A DNA stretch of 64,000 nucleotides, from assembly GCA_951406725.2 (NCBI GenBank), contig OX597835.1:9424001-9488000 (forward strand). The letters are read 5' to 3'. Made by a program: the position numbers and the translations under genes. Under the pieces are notes generated by a model, which worked only from the letters and a program-made list of their open reading frames with translations, was not told the origin of the DNA and searched no databases. Shown here one piece after another: positions 11,982 to 50,010 of the stretch. Positions within the stretch are counted from its first letter, which is position 1. Every line of letters begins with the position of its first letter. Origin of the DNA: Octopus vulgaris (taxonomy: Eukaryota).

Positions 11982-12186
11982 TTTATTTAAAGCAGCAGAA
12001 AATTCAACAAAACCTGTTACTCTGAGTTTCCCGTTGCAAAAAACTGTCCGATGAACGGCAACGGGAAACTCAGAGTAACAGGTTTTGTTGAATTTTTCTG
12101 CTACTTTAAATAAAGCATATTACTCTACCACTGGTATTTGAGTACTCTTTTTTCCACCTTGTTTCACATTTATGTGTTTACTCCGG
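11976..12186 (+). mobile_element. Foldback element (62-bp arms 11976-12037 / 12058-12120) with hammerhead-like motif, between (TA)n tracts
   Basis: ATATGCTTTATTTAAAGCAGCAGAAAATTCAACAAAACCTGTTACTCTGAGTTTCCCGTTGC and its reverse complement. The terminal part recurs inverted at 52441-52520. Confidence 0.85.
12044..12081 (+). ncRNA. Type I hammerhead-like motif, variant core CCGAUGA
   Basis: CUGU-CCGAUGA-A-CG GCAA CG-G-GAAA-CU CAG AG-UA-ACAG. Stem I CUGU/ACAG, short GNRA-capped stem II, stem III ACU/AGU, GUA triplet. Confidence 0.6.
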
Positions 12187-12214
12187 TATATATATATATA
12201 TACATACGATCGTG

Positions 12215-12905
12215 GAAGTATTAGAGGGTTAAGAAGCCGTGGTTGTTGGGTATCACCGTGTATGGGGGTTTGACGTCCAAGGTGAAGAGGAGGTGTGATG
12301 GGCCAGTAGGGAAGGAGAAGGAATTCAAAAGGCGAAGGGCGTGATTGGTGTCTTGTATATATGTGATGGGAAGGCAGCAACTAAAGGGAGCAGAATGCGA
12401 TCAAGGTATTTAGAGATGAGTTCTGAGGGTCAACTGCAGGCGGAAGCAGTGGGGCGGTCAGGCTTTTGTGGTTTATGTATTTTGAGAAGGAAATAGATGG
12501 TGGAGGTACGAGGTGTTCGAATGATGAAGTTGGTAGCGGTAGGGGGATGGCAGAACAGGGGATGAGGTCATAGATGGTAGGGGACACGTGCTGCTGGAAG
12601 AAGGAGGTGTGTTCGGAGGGAGGGAGGCGATAGAAGAGGGGATTTCGAAGCTGACTGAGCGCTTCCGCCCTGTATATGTCCGCGTTCCACACCACCACTG
12701 CTCCACCTTTGTCTACCCGGCTTGCCGACGATGTCATTGCGGCGACGGAGATCGCGAAGAACAATCGATTCAGCCCGGGTGATCTTGGAGGGGTCTTTTT
12801 TGAAATTGAATCGGTCGACCAACTCATTGTAGTCAGGCTTCTCAACTGGCCTGGAGGCGGCTTCCGGTTGGATAAGAGGGGCCTCAAGCAATCCAAGTTG
12901 TTGTG
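12215..12905 (-). pseudogene. Penelope-like element reverse transcriptase fragment (frameshifted)
   Basis: Across frames: ITRAESIVLRDLRRRNDIVGKP / DKGGAVVVWNADIYRAEALSQL / STIYFLLKIHKPQKPDRP / ELISKYLDRILLPLV / SHIQDTNHALRLLNSFSF...LLFTLDVKPPYTVIP. These correspond to the PLE KPADKG, LPKIHK..RP and D..SLYT.IP motifs. Confidence 0.9.
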
Positions 12906-39765: not shown

Positions 39766-40107
39766 TAGTTAGTTAGTTCATTTTTTGGCTCAAAAAGCAA
39801 AAAGCAAGGCCATGTAGGGGGACATGGAGATATGTACAGGGTGGTGTTCATGTAAAGAGTTCAGGCCACTTGTGGTCAAGGGAGACTTTGAACCGAGCGG
39901 TCGTCAGCATCTTCACTATCTCGTCCGGCAGCTTATTCCACGGATCTGCAACCCGGACGGAGAAAGCCCCTCTCCTTCGATTGAGATGAAATCGTCGCAG
40001 ATAGAGCTTTTCGGAGTGACCCCGCAGCCAACGCTCTGGAGCAGGAGTGAAAAACAGCTCTTTCGAGAGATTACACTTTCCGCTTATGATGTTGTGAGCA
40101 AGAATGA
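39766..40107 (-). mobile_element. CR1-group LINE family 2, 3' end with (TAAC)n tail
   Basis: ELFFTPAPERWLRGHSEKLYLRRFHLNRRRGAFSVRVADPWNKLPDEIV...FKVSLD, the CR1 C-terminal RGH..KL / FS.RV...WN.LP motifs. Confidence 0.9.
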
Positions 40108-40910
40108 TACGATACTCATTGTGCAACACAAACAAATGCATTCGCACACGCACACATGCACACGCAGATGCACGCACAAACGCACACACACATGCATAGG
40201 TGTATGAGTACGTGTCTCTGCTTGTGTGTATACGCGGTGGAGTTGTTGAGATCAGGTGAAGATACGTGAAATAATTTCAGTCCCAGGAGGGCATTGATTT
40301 GATCCAACTCTTTAAGAATTTTCCTCGGAGTTTATTTGAAATTCAGAGTAATACAGTTTGGCTGATCTTATACCGTAGTAGTACATATTTACACACATAC
40401 ACACATCCAAACACACCCACCCACGCACTTATACATACACATATATATTACACATACACTCATACATTTATGTATGTATGTGTGTGTGTGTGTATTTATT
40501 TATATATTGTAAGGAGTCATTATTTTTAAAAGAGCAACTCAACCTTCCCAATAACATTTACCTTACCTGCGGATCCAATGACAGCATATTTCTATATTTC
40601 TTTCTTTCCTCCTTTCTTTCTCTCTTCCCCTGTCTCTCATTGCAGCTCGTAAATCGATATCTTTTTTATTTTATTTTTCCAGTATTATTTTACAATATTT
40701 TTCCTACTAGACTATATTTTTCGCGATAAATTTTTTGTATATGCATACAACTGCAAACACACGTTTTTATGTCCATTTGCCTAAATGTATGTCTGTGACA
40801 TTAGTAAGGTAATGTATAGCATATTTCCCAGCATATATAAATATGATTTATTCTTGAAATACACACACACACACACACACACATATTTATATATATAAAT
40901 ACATATTTAC

Positions 40911-40942
<32 letters not shown>

Positions 40943-41121
40943 TTGATTTGCATAATAGTGGTTTTGTCTCTAATTTATTATAATATTATATAGATATATA
41001 TATATATATACATATTTACATATGGTGTCCTGTACTCATATATGCATGTATATGTACATGTAGAGGTAGGTACGTACATATATGTTTATATAAATGCATA
41101 TGTTTTATTTATTGATATATA

Positions 41122-41244
<123 letters not shown>

Positions 41245-42040
41245 TATATACCATCCTCCCTCTAACGTTCACCTATTACCTATTACTTTAGGCGCAATAT
41301 GTGTAACTAGGGAATATTACAAGCAATATTCCACGGAGGAAAGGAATTTTGTGTTACTAAAAAATATTCCTAAATATTCCTAAAACCTATTGGCATCAAC
41401 TTATGGTAAATTTGCTTAAGTCATAGATAATGTCCTGCGGAATATTTAGTTTAGTTTGTTGTTTGCTTTATTAAATGCTTTTTTCACCAAAATGTTTATT
41501 TTGTCTTCGTGCATACATATTCACAATTGTGAGTGTGTATCGGGCTTCGGTAAATTATTTACCAAGCAATACATTCGATGTCTAGAGCACATTTTGTGTA
41601 GCCAAAACTGTCAATAGACTACTAATTGTATATTTTTCCAATATACTGTGCAAACCAACAATTTATCTAATGCATTGGTCGCTTCTAATCCATTCATATT
41701 ACGATGTAACAATCATAGACGTACTTTTGGAAATAATAACCAAACTATCGCAGTCACGAGGGAATTGACATATAGATTTTGAACTTAGAATCGAAAACTC
41801 CTGCAAAAGATAGTTAAAACTATACAAAAATGGGAAAAGACTGTGTAAAATTAGAAACTCTAAGAACTTGATAATATTTTTTAACGTCTAGATTAAACAT
41901 ATAAGTGCGACGCAAATCCAGCATGTGCCTCTTGCTTCTACATTATAATTTTACGTATCCACCGCGCAAGCGCAGTTTATTGTCGGCAGCAAAAGAATCC
42001 CGGCATTTTTTCGAACAATTTTCCAGAAAAAAAATATCTG

Positions 42041-42598
42041 TAATTAATAATAACAGGGTAATAAAGATTTTAGAAATGTTTACTAACTGTGGCCTAGCGT
42101 GTGGAAAAATTAGTCAATAGACTATATATTATTCAAAATACAGTGTACGTTTAAACACATAAGAGATATCCGTCATATGATTCCTTTACTATTAGGGTAA
42201 AAACTCGAAAGGGATGAAAAATAAATTAGAATGTATAAGCACGGGGTACATGCTGGAATTGCCTCGTACTTATATGTTTTATCTAGCCGTACCTGCTGAT
42301 GAAGACTTCGCCTAACAAATTATATAATTTGCTAAAACAAGTCTGAAACGATGGTCCAGGAGATAGATGGTAAATGTTTTAATTTTTCGTTCCCTTCGAG
42401 TTTCTATCCCTAATAGTGATTTGGACTTTAGCTGTTCCTTCTAGCGTGAAAGGAATCCTATGTCGGATACATCTTATGTGTTTAAACGTACACTGTATTT
42501 ATATGAATAATATATAGTCTATTGACTTATTTTTCCACACGCTAGGCCACAGGTAGTAGACATTTCTAAAATCTTTATTATACTGTTATTATTAATTA
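42041..42598 (+). mobile_element. Foldback element (arms 42041-42222 / 42382-42598) ending at (TA)n, hammerhead ribozyme in the loop
   Basis: TAATTAATAATAACAG...TGTGGCCTAGCGTGTGGAAAAA...TACAGTGTACGTTTAAACACATAAGA versus its reverse complement; ~30-nt extra segment in the right arm. Confidence 0.9.
42281..42368 (+). ncRNA. Type I hammerhead ribozyme, canonical core, predicted cut after GUC (42356)
   Basis: CCUG-CUGAUGA-AGACUU[cgcc UAaCAAAUU auau AAUUUGcUA aaac]AAGUCU-GAAA-C GAUG G-UC-CAGG. Stem I CCUG/CAGG is extended by AUCUA/UAGAU after an internal loop. Confidence 0.85.
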
Positions 42599-43327
42599 TA
42601 TACATATATATATATATATATATGATGATGATGATGATTATGACGACGATGATGATGATATCGATTACGACGATGTTGTTGATGCTGTTGATATTCGTTG
42701 AGATTATCGGCCATGTTTCCTTTGGCTCTTCTGTACTGTAGATGATTAAAAGATGAAAGTACTTGAAAAAAGAATGTTTTAATACAGAACCTCTAAATAG
42801 GAAACAAGGTAGTATAATTGTTTGCGTTATTTGTTTCCCTCTTTCGTGGGGGGGGGGGGGATCACTTCTAATTTACGAAAGTCCTGCTTGTAAACAAGTA
42901 CATCGGCGGCGCATGTAGAAACGCCGCCGCAAAGTACTGAGAACGAAAACACTTTTCTCCAAAGAGGTGCAGACTGAAAATAAAAGCAGATGATAATTTC
43001 GGTTCTCAGCAGCATTCATTTATTTCACAACAACATTTATTACACAGCAACAATAATACATCCGCAGGTGTTCTATGGCCTTCTTGCTTTCGTTTGTATT
43101 AATTACATTGAGATTTGGGTGCGAATTGTCAGGTAGTGAAAAATGTTTACTGCGCAGATCCGTGCGAAAAGGTAAAGTACATCAACGCCTTATCAAACAG
43201 CGTGAAAAAATTAATGCGTTGTGCACCACGCAAAACTCATGGGGTTTTCTCATTTTCCTAGTAAGTATAGTACAATTATAGCTGCCAGTTGTTGATTGGG
43301 AAACCATATGATATTAGTTACAAATTT

Positions 43328-43445
43328 ATGGCACAAGGCTTCTCAAGCTGAGGGGCAGGGCTAAATCCATTAGATCAAACCCCCGTACTCGACTGGTACA
43401 TATTTTATCGAACCCGAGAGGATTGAAGGCGCAGTCGACCACGCT
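43328..43445 (-). mobile_element. SINE family A fragment
   Basis: GGCACAAGGC...GACTGGTACATATTTTATCGAACCCGAGAGGATTGAAGGCGCAGTCGACC. Confidence 0.7.
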
Positions 43446-43716
43446 CATACTTTCCTGATTATTCTGGTCGTGCCTAGGAGGCGAACGTTTTGCAACAGTT
43501 CTACTGGGAACTCTTCCCCGATTTCCTTTATTTCCCTTTGATGTCTTCTGATGCTGTCCCCAAGGAATCAACAATAACTTGCACTCTCCTGACCTTCTTT
43601 ATATAATTGGCACTATCTTCACCTACTTTATATTATAATTATTACTGCTGCTGTTGTTGTTGTTGTTGATATTATTGCCGTCGTCATCGTCGTGGTTATT
43701 ATTATTATTATTATTA

Positions 43717-43753
<37 letters not shown>

Positions 43754-43797
43754 CATTAACATTATTATTATTATTATTATTAATATTATTATTATTA

Positions 43798-43862
<65 letters not shown>

Positions 43863-44244
43863 CATTCTAAAGTACTGATCGTTTATCTCAATGCCTGCCG
43901 AAGAAATAAATTATCTTTCTTCGATATATCCTTTTACTTCATTTTTTTACGCTCATCACAATATGGTTTCTCGAAGCAGAGGTGCCTGAAACACCAACAA
44001 GGAAAATCACTTTGAACGTAAGAAAACGCTTTGCAACAGAAAACGCAAAACAACACAAAAAAACTAAATTCACCAAAACAGCAACACGTAAAAGCAATTC
44101 AACGCCATTTTAACAAGTGACAATATTAATGTAGACGATTCCAAATAAGGCATCGTTAACTCCCGCAGCAAATGTTCACCTTACAACAAGAGTTACAGAA
44201 AATATCTATTATTGCACAGTTTCTGAAGGAAAATCATGGATATA

Positions 44245-44612
44245 GTCGCAGGTGTAGCTGTGTGGTAGGAATCTCGCTTCCCAACCACATGGCTCCAGGT
44301 TCAATTATACTGCGTGGCACCTTGGGCAAGTGTCTTCTTCTATAGTCTCAAGCCGACCAAAGCCCTGTGAGTGGATTTAGTAGTCGGAAATTGAAAGAAT
44401 CCCTTCATGTATACATATATGTATATATATGTTTATGTGTGTGTGTCTTGACAACCGATGTTGGTGTGTCTATGCACCCGAGACCTAGTGGTTTGCTAAA
44501 AGAGAGCGAACGATAGAATAAGTACTAGGCTTACAAAGCATAAGTCCTGGGATCGATTTCTTCGACTAAAAGGCGCTGTTCCAGTATGGCCACAGTCAAA
44601 TGACTGAAAAGT
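44245..44612 (+). mobile_element. SINE family B, diverged
   Basis: GCAGGTGTAGCTGTGTGGTAGG...GTGGCACCTTGGGCAAGTGTCTTC...CAGTCAAATGACTGAAA. Confidence 0.88.
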
Positions 44613-44984
44613 ATAGCAGATGAAATGAATATATGACTCTAGAATGTTACTAAAAGAAGTATCACCTTTCCTTAGGAATTTATCCAAGACTAGGCAAGAA
44701 GGAATGTAAGTTATCTCTGAATTGATATCCAATTTCACTGAAAAGAATAGTTGAAAACATTATTAAATCTCAGAATGAGATGTAAACAGTAATCGCTCGA
44801 TAATGTAAAGTATAGAAGCCATATTAAGATGGCTTCAATAGTTGAAAACCCGTACATCAAATCTTACTTCGAAGCAAAAATGCAAAGAGAGGGAAGTCAC
44901 CAAAAAATACAAAGAGTGAAGACACACGTATAGGCATAGACTGCCACTGTAATATAGAGATGGCACAGCTCAGAGAATGTAATG

Positions 44985-45398
44985 CTCTCTTTACTCTCTT
45001 TTACTCTTTTACTTGTTTCAGTCATTTGACTGCGGCCATGCTGGAGCACCGCCTTTAGTCGAGCAAATCGACCCCGGGACTTATTCTTTGTAAGCCCAGT
45101 ACTTATTCTATCGGTCTCTTTTTTGCCGAACCGCTAAGTGACGGGGACGTAAACACACCAGCATCAGTTGTCAAGCAATGCTAGGGGGACAACACAGACA
45201 CACGAACATTCACACACATATACATATACATATATACGTCGGGCTTCTTTCAGTTTCCGTCTACCAAATCCACTCACAAGGCATTGGTCGGCCCGGGGCT
45301 ATAGCAGAAGACACTTGCCCAAGATGCCACGCAGTGGGACTGAACCCGGAACCATGTGGTTGGTTAGCAAGCTATTTACCACACAGCCACTCCTGCGT
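44985..45398 (-). mobile_element. SINE family B, full length
   Basis: Highly similar to 20307-20725. Confidence 0.92.
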
Positions 45399-46705: not shown

Positions 46706-47164
46706 TAATTAGTATTATTATTATTATTATTATCATCATTATTTCATTTTATATTTGTCATCATTCTCAGTGTCTTCACATCAACAGCATCAGTACCATG
46801 CTGATCATGAAAATCAAAATCTACATCATCATCATCATCACCATCATTACCATCTTCAACATCATGATCATCGCCATCATCATCATCATCATGATTATCA
46901 TCATTACCACAAGTACAACCACCACCACCACCACCGTCGTCGTCATCATTACCATCATCATCAGCCCAATTTTCATTATTTCCAACCTCATCCTCTCCAC
47001 CGCCCTCATGAAAAGTCAGCACCTCCACCACCACCACCATTAACACTGAATTCTCTTTCTCGTTTCTTCTCCAACGTCTCACGATAATTATCCATATGTT
47101 AATTAGAAAAAAAATCGCCATCCACTCTATTCACAACAATAACAATATTGTTATGATATTAATA

Positions 47165-47169
47165 TCATT

Positions 47170-47212
<43 letters not shown>

Positions 47213-47294
47213 ATATCATCATCGTCATCATCCTCATCGTCATCATCCTCCTCATCATCATCATCATCCTCATCATCATCATCATCATCATCAA

Positions 47295-47330
<36 letters not shown>

Positions 47331-47332
47331 CG

Positions 47333-47380
<48 letters not shown>

Positions 47381-47381
47381 A

Positions 47382-47414
<33 letters not shown>

Positions 47415-47459
47415 CATCCTCATCATCCTCGTCATCATCATCATCATCATCATCATCAA

Positions 47460-47503
<44 letters not shown>

Positions 47504-47560
47504 ACATCATCATCATCATCATCATCATCCTCATCATCATCCTCATCCTCATCATCCTCG

Positions 47561-47641
<81 letters not shown>

Positions 47642-47698
47642 ATATCATCATCGTCATCATCCTCATCATCATCATCCTCCTCCTCATCATCATCATCC

Positions 47699-47777
<79 letters not shown>

Positions 47778-47779
47778 CG

Positions 47780-47878
<99 letters not shown>

Positions 47879-47926
47879 CATCCTCATCATCCTCGTCATC
47901 ATCATCATCATCATCATCATCATCAA

Positions 47927-47970
<44 letters not shown>

Positions 47971-48027
47971 ACATCATCATCATCATCATCATCATCCTCA
48001 TCATCATCCTCATCCTCATCATCCTCG

Positions 48028-48103
<76 letters not shown>

Positions 48104-48142
48104 CATCATCATCAACACCATCATCATCATCATCATCATCAT

Positions 48143-48178
<36 letters not shown>

Positions 48179-48180
48179 CG

Positions 48181-48255
<75 letters not shown>

Positions 48256-48256
48256 A

Positions 48257-48300
<44 letters not shown>

Positions 48301-48301
48301 A

Positions 48302-48340
<39 letters not shown>

Positions 48341-48342
48341 CG

Positions 48343-48421
<79 letters not shown>

Positions 48422-48473
48422 CTTCATCATCAACATCATCATCACCATCATCATCATCATCATCACCATCATT

Positions 48474-48511
<38 letters not shown>

Positions 48512-48541
48512 TATCATCAACATCATCATCATCATCCTCAA

Positions 48542-48593
<52 letters not shown>

Positions 48594-48743
48594 TCGATGA
48601 AAATTCTCATCAATGCCAACAAATAATATTACCAGCAGCCCTAGTCACTGATAACAATACCATATCAATAATACCAACACCATCCTCTGAGCATTTCTTA
48701 ATGCCATCATTATACTTATCATTATTGATATTGTCACCGCCAA

Positions 48744-48809
<66 letters not shown>

Positions 48810-48863
48810 CATCATCATCCTCATCCTCATCATCCTCGTCATCATCATCATCATCATCATCAA

Positions 48864-48905
<42 letters not shown>

Positions 48906-48970
48906 TATCATCAACATCATCATCATCATCATCATCATCCTCATCATCATCCTCATCCTCATCATCCTCG

Positions 48971-49068
<98 letters not shown>

Positions 49069-49114
49069 GTCATCATCCTCATCGTCATCATCCTCCTCAT
49101 CATCATCATCATCC

Positions 49115-49190
<76 letters not shown>

Positions 49191-49334
49191 CCTCATCATC
49201 ATCATCATCATCATCATCATCAGCATCATCATCATCATCATCATCATCATCAACATCATCATCATCATCATCATCCTCATCATCATTCTCATCCTCATCA
49301 TCCTCGTCATCATCATCATCATCATCATCATCAA

Positions 49335-49381
<47 letters not shown>

Positions 49382-49438
49382 ACATCATCATCATCATCAT
49401 CATCATCCTCATCATCATCCTCATCCTCATCATCCTCG

Positions 49439-49474
<36 letters not shown>

Positions 49475-49559
49475 ACATCAACATCATCATCATCATCCTC
49501 ATCATCATCCTCATCATCATCATCATCATCAACACCATCATCATCATCATCATCATCAT

Positions 49560-49592
<33 letters not shown>

Positions 49593-49664
49593 CATCATCA
49601 TCATCATCATCATCATCATCAACATCATCATCATCATCAACATCATCATCATCATCATCATCAA

Positions 49665-49702
<38 letters not shown>

Positions 49703-49703
49703 A

Positions 49704-49751
<48 letters not shown>

Positions 49752-49790
49752 CATCATCATCATCATCATCATCATCAACATCATCATCAA

Positions 49791-49838
<48 letters not shown>

Positions 49839-49890
49839 CTTCATCATCAACATCATCATCACCATCATCATCATCATCATCACCATCATT

Positions 49891-49922
<32 letters not shown>

Positions 49923-49952
49923 TATCATCAACATCATCATCATCATCCTCAA

Positions 49953-50010
<58 letters not shown>

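Follow-up and report, generated by a model that had tools for sequence, protein, structure and literature searches.

Between positions 42041 and 42598 of a 64-kb stretch of Octopus vulgaris DNA, referred to here as the window, a hammerhead ribozyme motif lies between two long inverted arms. The locus raises the question of what kind of element it represents, and whether the ribozyme and the arms are working parts of a single unit. A sequence-only reading had described it as a 560-nt foldback derived from a Penelope-like element (PLE), whose transcript would present a self-cleaving loop on a long double-stranded stem.

The hammerhead motif in the window

The type I hammerhead motif occupies 42281-42368 on the forward strand and was recognised by a descriptor match together with its fold, with a predicted cut after 42356. 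A CUGAUGA core with C3 (42296-42302) is followed by a 6-bp stem II (AGACUU/AAGUCU; 42303-42308/42339-42344), an AU-rich hairpin that extends stem II (42313-42334; one pair broken in the window copy) and GAAA (42345-42348). The stem III octamer ACGAUGGU (42348-42355) has the form A-C-GAUG-G-U, with two base pairs closing GAUG, and leads into the GUC site, where C17 at 42356 is the predicted cleavage position. Stem I consists of 4 bp (42292-42295/42357-42360), an internal loop and 5 bp (42281-42285/42364-42368), all on the forward strand. Under the hammerhead core criteria that follow PMC3088659 (C3-U4-G5-A6-N-G8-A9, G12-A13-A14, A15.1-U16.1, H17 and three closing stems), all type I core positions are present in the window copy, its three stems close and the core-adjacent pairs are Watson-Crick.

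The type I descriptor, which requires the core, four pairs in stems I and II and A15.1-U16.1, matched once in the 64-kb window, at 42281-42368, and gave one match in 2 of 60 shuffles. The elements of a complete type I hammerhead were therefore as the sequence-only reading had claimed, and its statement that no ORF is present also held, as the region is overlapped by only five short ORFs of 33-65 aa. The motif did not find a counterpart among the Rfam hammerhead models, none of which matched at E up to 5 (40000-45000) or up to 10 (42200-42450); the Rfam matches in the region were microsatellite-driven miRNA noise only. The long stem II may be the cause of this miss.

Folding predictions for the window copy were poor. 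The isolated motif folded no better than shuffled sequences (z -0.14), the active fold lay 4.3-5.1 kcal/mol above the ensemble in all four contexts modelled, and stem III pairing was 0.02-0.06. For the 8-mer stem III duplex, the predicted energy was -11.2 kcal/mol between two family strands, -7.2 between a window and a family strand and -3.2 between two window strands. The stem III palindrome is broken in the window copy, which also lacks a partner hammerhead in cis, and these models predict little or no cleavage for it. Directly 5' of the hammerhead, a self-complementary hairpin at 42223-42274 (m94-138; monomer positions are given along a natural copy, L006, m1-m468) is present in many copies and competes with lower stem I in the predicted fold.

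A repeat family with a 462-nt unit

A search of the octopus's own genome (2.8 Gb) returned at least 134 matches from the 40 scored of 3018 candidates, most of them covering 42223-42605. The exact 16-mer across stem III has 448 genome matches, compared with none for its reversed control, and is exact in 50 of 115 sampled segments; together these two counts suggest roughly a thousand hammerhead-bearing copies in the genome. Genomic copies are thus plentiful, numbering at least 448, and what is repeated is not the 560-nt foldback but a 462-nt monomer. The units are non-coding and arranged head to tail as in retrozymes, with cleavage sites spaced at 462 nt (L009) and 463 nt (L095), and at 458 + 439 nt (L070) and 401 nt (L066) in decayed arrays; the window copy has one hammerhead only. 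L070 is a three-unit array, arrays span up to 2.5 units, and 24 of 146 arms exceed 470 nt, the longest reaching 1170 nt. The GC content of the unit is low (34%). It contains no reverse transcriptase (RT) or GIY-YIG ORF and no long ORF, and it was therefore classed as a PLE passenger and not as an autonomous PLE.

Divergence from the column majority had a median of 7.3% (for the 101 of 147 segments that were long enough), with 3.4% for the closest sampled copy and 7.9% for the window copy. Family contigs were present in the DNA runs of four organisms, one of which is about 5% diverged in the flanks, and the family is on this account considered old. Older relatives with 70-75% identity to the L006 monomer, also two-armed, were observed at L138:2763-3233 (oriented) and in L016. 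Four runs taken as RNA held 62-392 family contigs each, mostly short and diverged; none of those listed spans the reference, and such contigs are blind to ends, strand and circles. A rod-like circular RNA was rejected, as the natural L009 monomer folded as a circle gave a z of only -1.8. A modest cluster of 5' ends was also seen at m58-78 (41960-41980, reverse strand), near a GC-rich hairpin and a TTTGAA motif, and could represent an RT stall or a transcription start.

Our literature search, which covered main texts, found no paper describing the 462-nt family. In the main text of an octopus repeat annotation (PMC13282606), the words 'hammerhead' and 'ribozyme' are absent.

Arms and boundaries of the window insertion

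The forward arm (42223-42598) covers m87-m462, is 5'-truncated and has 89% identity to L006 over 383 nt. It reads through a preferred 3' end of the family, termed site A (~m367), in the loop of a short AU-rich hairpin at 42488-42504, and continues as a 94-nt 'tail' (42505-42598) to site B (m462), which is the right end of the insertion. The target microsatellite follows at 42599-42692, as (TA)n to ~42623 and then (ATG)n; all of these features lie on the forward strand. On the reverse strand, BLAST against the natural L006 monomer and alignment of the arms placed an inverted, 5'-truncated arm of 342 nt at 41884-42225. In element sense this arm runs through m242-280, a 31-nt deletion and m313-461, reads through the monomer junction and continues over m5-154; it ends within the 5' strand of hammerhead stem I and lacks the hammerhead core. 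The two arms meet head to head at m242 and m87 with about 3 shared bases (junction overlap -3).

Complementarity between the arms is 92% over the first 102 nt (42034-42135/42504-42605) and extends to ~42222/42382, for a total of about 190 nt that is interrupted on the left side by a gap of 31 nt. The earlier description of inverted arms ending at a (TA)n tract is accordingly correct for the arms and, at the (TA)n end, for the right arm only. The left boundary at 42041 is merely the monomer junction, which the element overshoots by 150 nt as it continues to 41884. The suggestion that the inversion is an inverted partial copy proved sound, the left arm being an inverted, 5'-truncated second copy. 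Over m313-461 the window arms have 5 non-majority bases in common per 140 nt, and over the m87-154 overlap they have no variants in common and 10 differences.

At its left end (m154) the insertion adjoins no microsatellite, and no target duplication was seen there. A deletion of about 210 nt after insertion, which would have removed site A and the second hammerhead, is the likely explanation that we infer for this end. The search for an empty site found no DNA contig bridging the locus; the left-flank contig of one run (X12) departs from the window sequence at 41828 and continues for about 850 letters, and is a weak hint only.

Insertion layout and end sites across the family

The insertion census proceeded from 97 loci to 84 independent loci and 90 insertions. 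Two arms with both 3' ends outward were present in 52 of the 90 insertions, the remaining 38 being one-armed, and 26 read seamlessly through the monomer junction, from site B into the monomer start with no ORF between. Since the first 30 loci had been chosen by their likeness to the window, a recount was made on 56 loci chosen only by the core 17-mer, which gave 30 two-armed loci and 18 that read through the junction. Head-to-head junctions joined differing positions in nearly every copy, often with few shared bases, and arm lengths varied too. Non-majority bases were in common at a rate of 2.2 per 100 within an insertion versus 0.63 per 100 between insertions, from 60 and 8949 pairs that are not independent and a few of which are later duplications.

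This variation bears directly on the foldback proposal. Fixed terminal inverted repeats and a common target duplication, as expected of a MITE or foldback DNA transposon, were not found among the copies, and such a transposon was ruled out by the variable arm lengths and junctions and by the 38 of 90 insertions that are one-armed. A foldback that works through a transcript folded into a long double-stranded stem around a self-cleaving loop is very improbable on our assessment: the plus-strand transcript is indeed predicted to pair with itself as an extended stem (-284 kcal/mol), and imposing the hammerhead structure inside the foldback costs 5.1 kcal/mol, no more than in the forward copy alone, but the same variation in arms and junctions and the same one-armed insertions count against it, as do the 150 nt by which the left arm passes the supposed boundary. 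In addition, stems I and III pair with probabilities of only 0.03 and 0.06 in the foldback, and the only hammerhead present has lost its palindrome. Since almost every copy has its own arm lengths and junctions, the stem with its self-cleaving loop is interpreted as an accident of the window insertion.

The outer ends were far more regular than the junctions. Our analysis of 142 outward 3' ends placed 48 at site A (~m367, 42504), 61 at site B (m462, 42598) and 33 elsewhere, so that 109 of 142 fell at one of two sites 94 nt apart. A microsatellite adjoined 38 of the 48 ends at A and 52 of the 61 at B (90 of 109 together), in comparison to 8 of 33 ends elsewhere, 12 of 38 5' ends and 199 of 1236 background windows. 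Both ends could be classed in 27 of the 52 two-armed copies, and these comprised 24 A+B, 3 B+B and no A+A combinations (p 2e-5); in the core-picked subset A+B was found in 9 of 12 (p 0.07). One-armed copies ended at B in 19 cases, at A in 15 and elsewhere in 4. Of the three B+B cases, one is a read-through and another is a copy whose flanks are identical; among the A+B cases, L004 extends about 17 nt beyond B. An end was unclassed in 25 of the 52 two-armed copies, among them the window copy (B on the right, m154 on the left). Independent DNA runs, among the rows listed, showed (TA)n loose ends at 42504 in three of four runs and at 42041 in one of four. There was no pile-up of 5' ends at the cleavage site, m219. 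The family thus has the marks of Penelope-like insertions, namely an inverted 5'-truncated copy, partial tandems, a tail on one arm and a simple-repeat target.

The hairpin shape is likely a by-product of insertion, in which two 5'-truncated copies were joined head to head. Self-priming on an antisense template or later rearrangement could also have produced the inversion, and either would alter this mechanistic step only, leaving the identity of the repeat as it stands. Self-priming has been proposed for head-to-head PLE inversions (PMC3846280), the window left end is atypical, and the loci L055, L067/L068 and L092 are rearranged or duplicated. Self-priming predicts palindromic junctions, however, and the observed junctions bring together positions that are unrelated, m242 and m87 in the case of the window insertion, and the outer ends both lie on the target microsatellite at fixed sites; we regard these routes as rather unlikely. 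Two-ended priming of cDNA is the step that we favour, with moderate confidence.

Ribozyme variation in the family

Stem III of the family is A-CCAUGG-U. The corresponding palindrome ACCAUGGU was found in 62 of 102 spanning segments, and exact stem III matches in the genome numbered 448 for the family palindrome versus 4 for the G variant of the window. A short stem III of the dimer type, as had been proposed, is therefore characteristic of the family. CGAUCG, the palindrome that the sequence-only reading had noted one change away from the window form, was ruled out as the ancestral stem III, and because the ancestral palindrome is ACCAUGGU, the window copy represents a decayed stem III form.

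Most copies have a U3-G8 core rather than C3-G8, position 3 in exact 17-mers being U in 172 and C in 31, with 4 for a control one-base variant. A U3-G8 pair slows hammerhead cleavage. On a tree of 84 tips, the U3 and C3 states required 12 changes in comparison to 24.2 +/- 1.9 in shuffles, and as both states cluster on the tree, both are considered inherited. RNA editing was rejected as the source of C3/U3, there being no A>G excess in element sense (0.024 vs 0.018 for T>C). The first stem II pair (10.1-11.1) was A-A in 59 of 102 segments and A-U in 35 of 102, and C3, an intact core and stems, the palindrome and A-U occurred jointly in 6 of 102 segments, in a sample that was C3-enriched by design.

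Among loci that were not core-picked, core variability was 2.3% versus 6.7% at base-matched positions (P 0.002) and stem I was slightly less variable (P 0.03), with differences for stems II and III and the extension not significant. One compensatory change (C-G to U-A) was identified in the stem II extension, where it marks a subfamily and represents a single event; none was found among the copies in upper stem I, stem II or stem III.

Coding partner and other Penelope-like sequences

A coding partner of the 462-nt repeat was not found, in that the 38 outer 5' flanks have no common upstream sequence and neither of the two coding PLE families of the genome that were tested carries the monomer. 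Coding PLEs are abundant, as two queries with endonuclease regions yielded 2136 and 14646 candidates at first look. A same-strand pair 3.85 kb apart on C1 was rejected as a coding copy, being a local duplication that lacks a PLE ORF. The PLE fragments that neighbour L011 and L020 proved to come from other families: none of 29 further loci of the former matches the monomer at E below 0.1, and 1 of 19 loci of the latter has an old copy (72-75%) about 1 kb downstream. A Pfam search of three PLE fragments gave a sub-threshold GIY-YIG match in one.

Several features of these sequences were observed in passing. The first coding family (L011:300-1451, reverse strand, and L098-L127; 2136 candidates) includes a thumb region and GIY-YIG, and in 19 of 30 loci its 3' region has a minimal hammerhead-like motif with a U3-A8 core, beyond which several fixed ends run into (AAT)n/(ATT)n. 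At L011 itself, the truncated PLE 5' end lies head to head with a copy of the 462-nt family. The second, very abundant PLE-like family (L020:450-1394, reverse strand, and L128-L147; 14646 candidates) has open frames of up to 934 codons, an asparagine-rich stretch that precedes the endonuclease region and a CUGAAGA...GAAA motif about 600 nt past the stop codon. A short repeat of a different kind, which carries a minimal C3-G8 hammerhead-like motif, was seen within the (AAT)n tails of PLE copies (L101:2245, L102:2259 and L119:2160, oriented). Within the window, a frameshifted RT remnant at ~12120-12850 on the reverse strand retains DIVGKP..DKGGAVVVW, LKIHKP..P.RP and TLDV..YT.IP, motifs that are presumably Penelope-type, and shows no likeness to the 462-nt monomer. 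The window is repeat-rich (161 tandem-repeat rows) and includes a 2.8-kb (ATC)n array of 949 copies at 47164-50010, behind an extreme GC skew at 46-50 kb.

Alternatively, the copies may be terminal-repeat (pLTR) fragments of an autonomous PLE whose long copies were unsampled. Pieces of 5'-truncated pLTR with an inverted copy and a tail are common PLE debris, as far as PMC8557442, PMC3846280 and PMC4209133 describe it, and one of the coding PLEs found here is organised in the same way, its hammerhead-like motif preceding several fixed ends that lie in microsatellites. Such fragments would not be expected to read from B into the monomer start without an intervening ORF, as 26 of 90 insertions do, nor to form arrays of up to 2.5 units, and the outer 5' flanks have nothing in common in all 38 cases. 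We therefore consider this origin improbable.

Relation to retrozymes and a proposed cycle

In summary, the insertion at this locus is with high probability an aged and degenerate member of a non-coding hammerhead family with a 462-nt unit, and the family probably represents a non-LTR retrozyme that relies on Penelope-like enzymes for its movement. Several results count against this reading, namely the negative search for a coding partner in the flanks and families tested, the window left end, which departs from the A+B pattern, the p of 0.07 in the core-picked subset, the m87-154 overlap, the scatter of 5' ends away from m219, the lack of compensatory changes in upper stem I, stem II or stem III, the prevalence of U3-G8 and A10.1-A11.1, and the length of the tail. 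This kind of element, a non-LTR retrozyme that is a non-autonomous PLE, is already known, and the family is a further member. The classification as a non-autonomous PLE derivative in the sequence-only reading agrees with our results in that the repeat is non-coding, Penelope-linked and equipped with a type I hammerhead and an inverted partial copy, and departs from them in the foldback unit and the working form.

Metazoan retrozymes are described as repeats in tandem that carry type I hammerheads and are expressed as circular RNA, PLEs being favoured as their mover (PMC7229834; bioRxiv 10.64898/2026.07.22.740005). As characterised in these papers (Cervera and de la Pena 2020; Li, Clavereau and Pollet 2026), they resemble the octopus family in their non-coding head-to-tail unit, single type I hammerhead, low GC content, dispersal as monomers to trimers and proposed PLE mover. 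The octopus unit of 462 nt is longer than the 220-400 nt reported there for coral, mussel and axolotl, more than half of the sampled insertions are head to head, and the family looks old.

Likewise, metazoan PLE hammerheads (Cervera and de la Pena 2014, PMC4209133) are of type I with a long helix II and a short palindromic helix III suited to dimers, and occur mostly as solitary copies with some opposite-strand pairs 100-700 bp apart. The octopus family differs from that account in its long stem II extension, its majority U3-G8 core as opposed to C3-G8 or U3-A8, its first stem II position (A-U or A-A above G-C) and the lack of a linked ORF. Hammerheads with a short palindromic stem III act as dimers, albeit weakly (PMC4209133, PMC6765202), and a natural U3-G8 variant is mentioned in PMC7151607.

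PLE insertions are reported to include partial tandems, an inverted 5'-truncated copy, a 30-40-bp tail at one end and a bias towards simple repeats (PMC8557442, PMC3846280). The octopus insertions resemble those of endonuclease-bearing PLEs in the inverted 5'-truncated copy at the 5' end, the tail on one arm, the AT-rich or microsatellite target and two internal start sites (PMC8557442, PMC3846280, PMC11167929); their tail is 94 nt in comparison to 30-40 nt, and they encode no protein. For the anole PLE protein (PAc), both target strands are cut and extended, RT starts at two internal sites, which delimit the tail, and hammerhead cleavage is not required in vitro (PMC11167929). The start sites here are found in AU-rich hairpins with a resemblance to the (TA)n target; PAc instead starts in an AC-rich loop that has no target homology.

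A cycle can be proposed in which tandem copies would be transcribed and two hammerheads would pair via ACCAUGGU before cutting, after which monomers may close into circles. A borrowed RT/GIY-YIG protein would cut a TA repeat and prime cDNA from both DNA ends, using a circular or multimeric RNA on which one cDNA starts at site A and the other at site B. A circular rather than a multimeric template is possible, though we would not give it the better chance. The two cDNAs would then be joined at their truncated ends, giving a head-to-head insertion, and the window copy would have lost the outer (A) end of its inverted arm later.

More tentatively, the family may be a retrozyme lineage that expanded mainly with a detuned ribozyme (U3-G8 wobble and A10.1-A11.1 mismatch, both inherited by descent), whose closed 462-nt RNA would be copied by a Penelope-type dimer, the halves starting at two AU hairpins 94 nt apart, one for each strand of the cut TA repeat. 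We consider this doubtful as it stands; if it were true, the family would record asymmetric two-strand PLE priming together with selection for slow self-cleavage.

As a locus, the window insertion is ordinary retroelement debris. The A+B rule gives a concrete prediction for an in vitro PLE system, and the natural U3-G8 and C3-G8 copies offer a direct test of the cleavage level that such elements need. The Penelope link of retrozymes has been proposed in PMC7229834 and bioRxiv 10.64898/2026.07.22.740005 and argued there mainly from ribozymes in common, tandem layout, co-occurrence and phylogeny, and the octopus family provides an example that ties retrozyme-like repeats to Penelope-type insertion marks.
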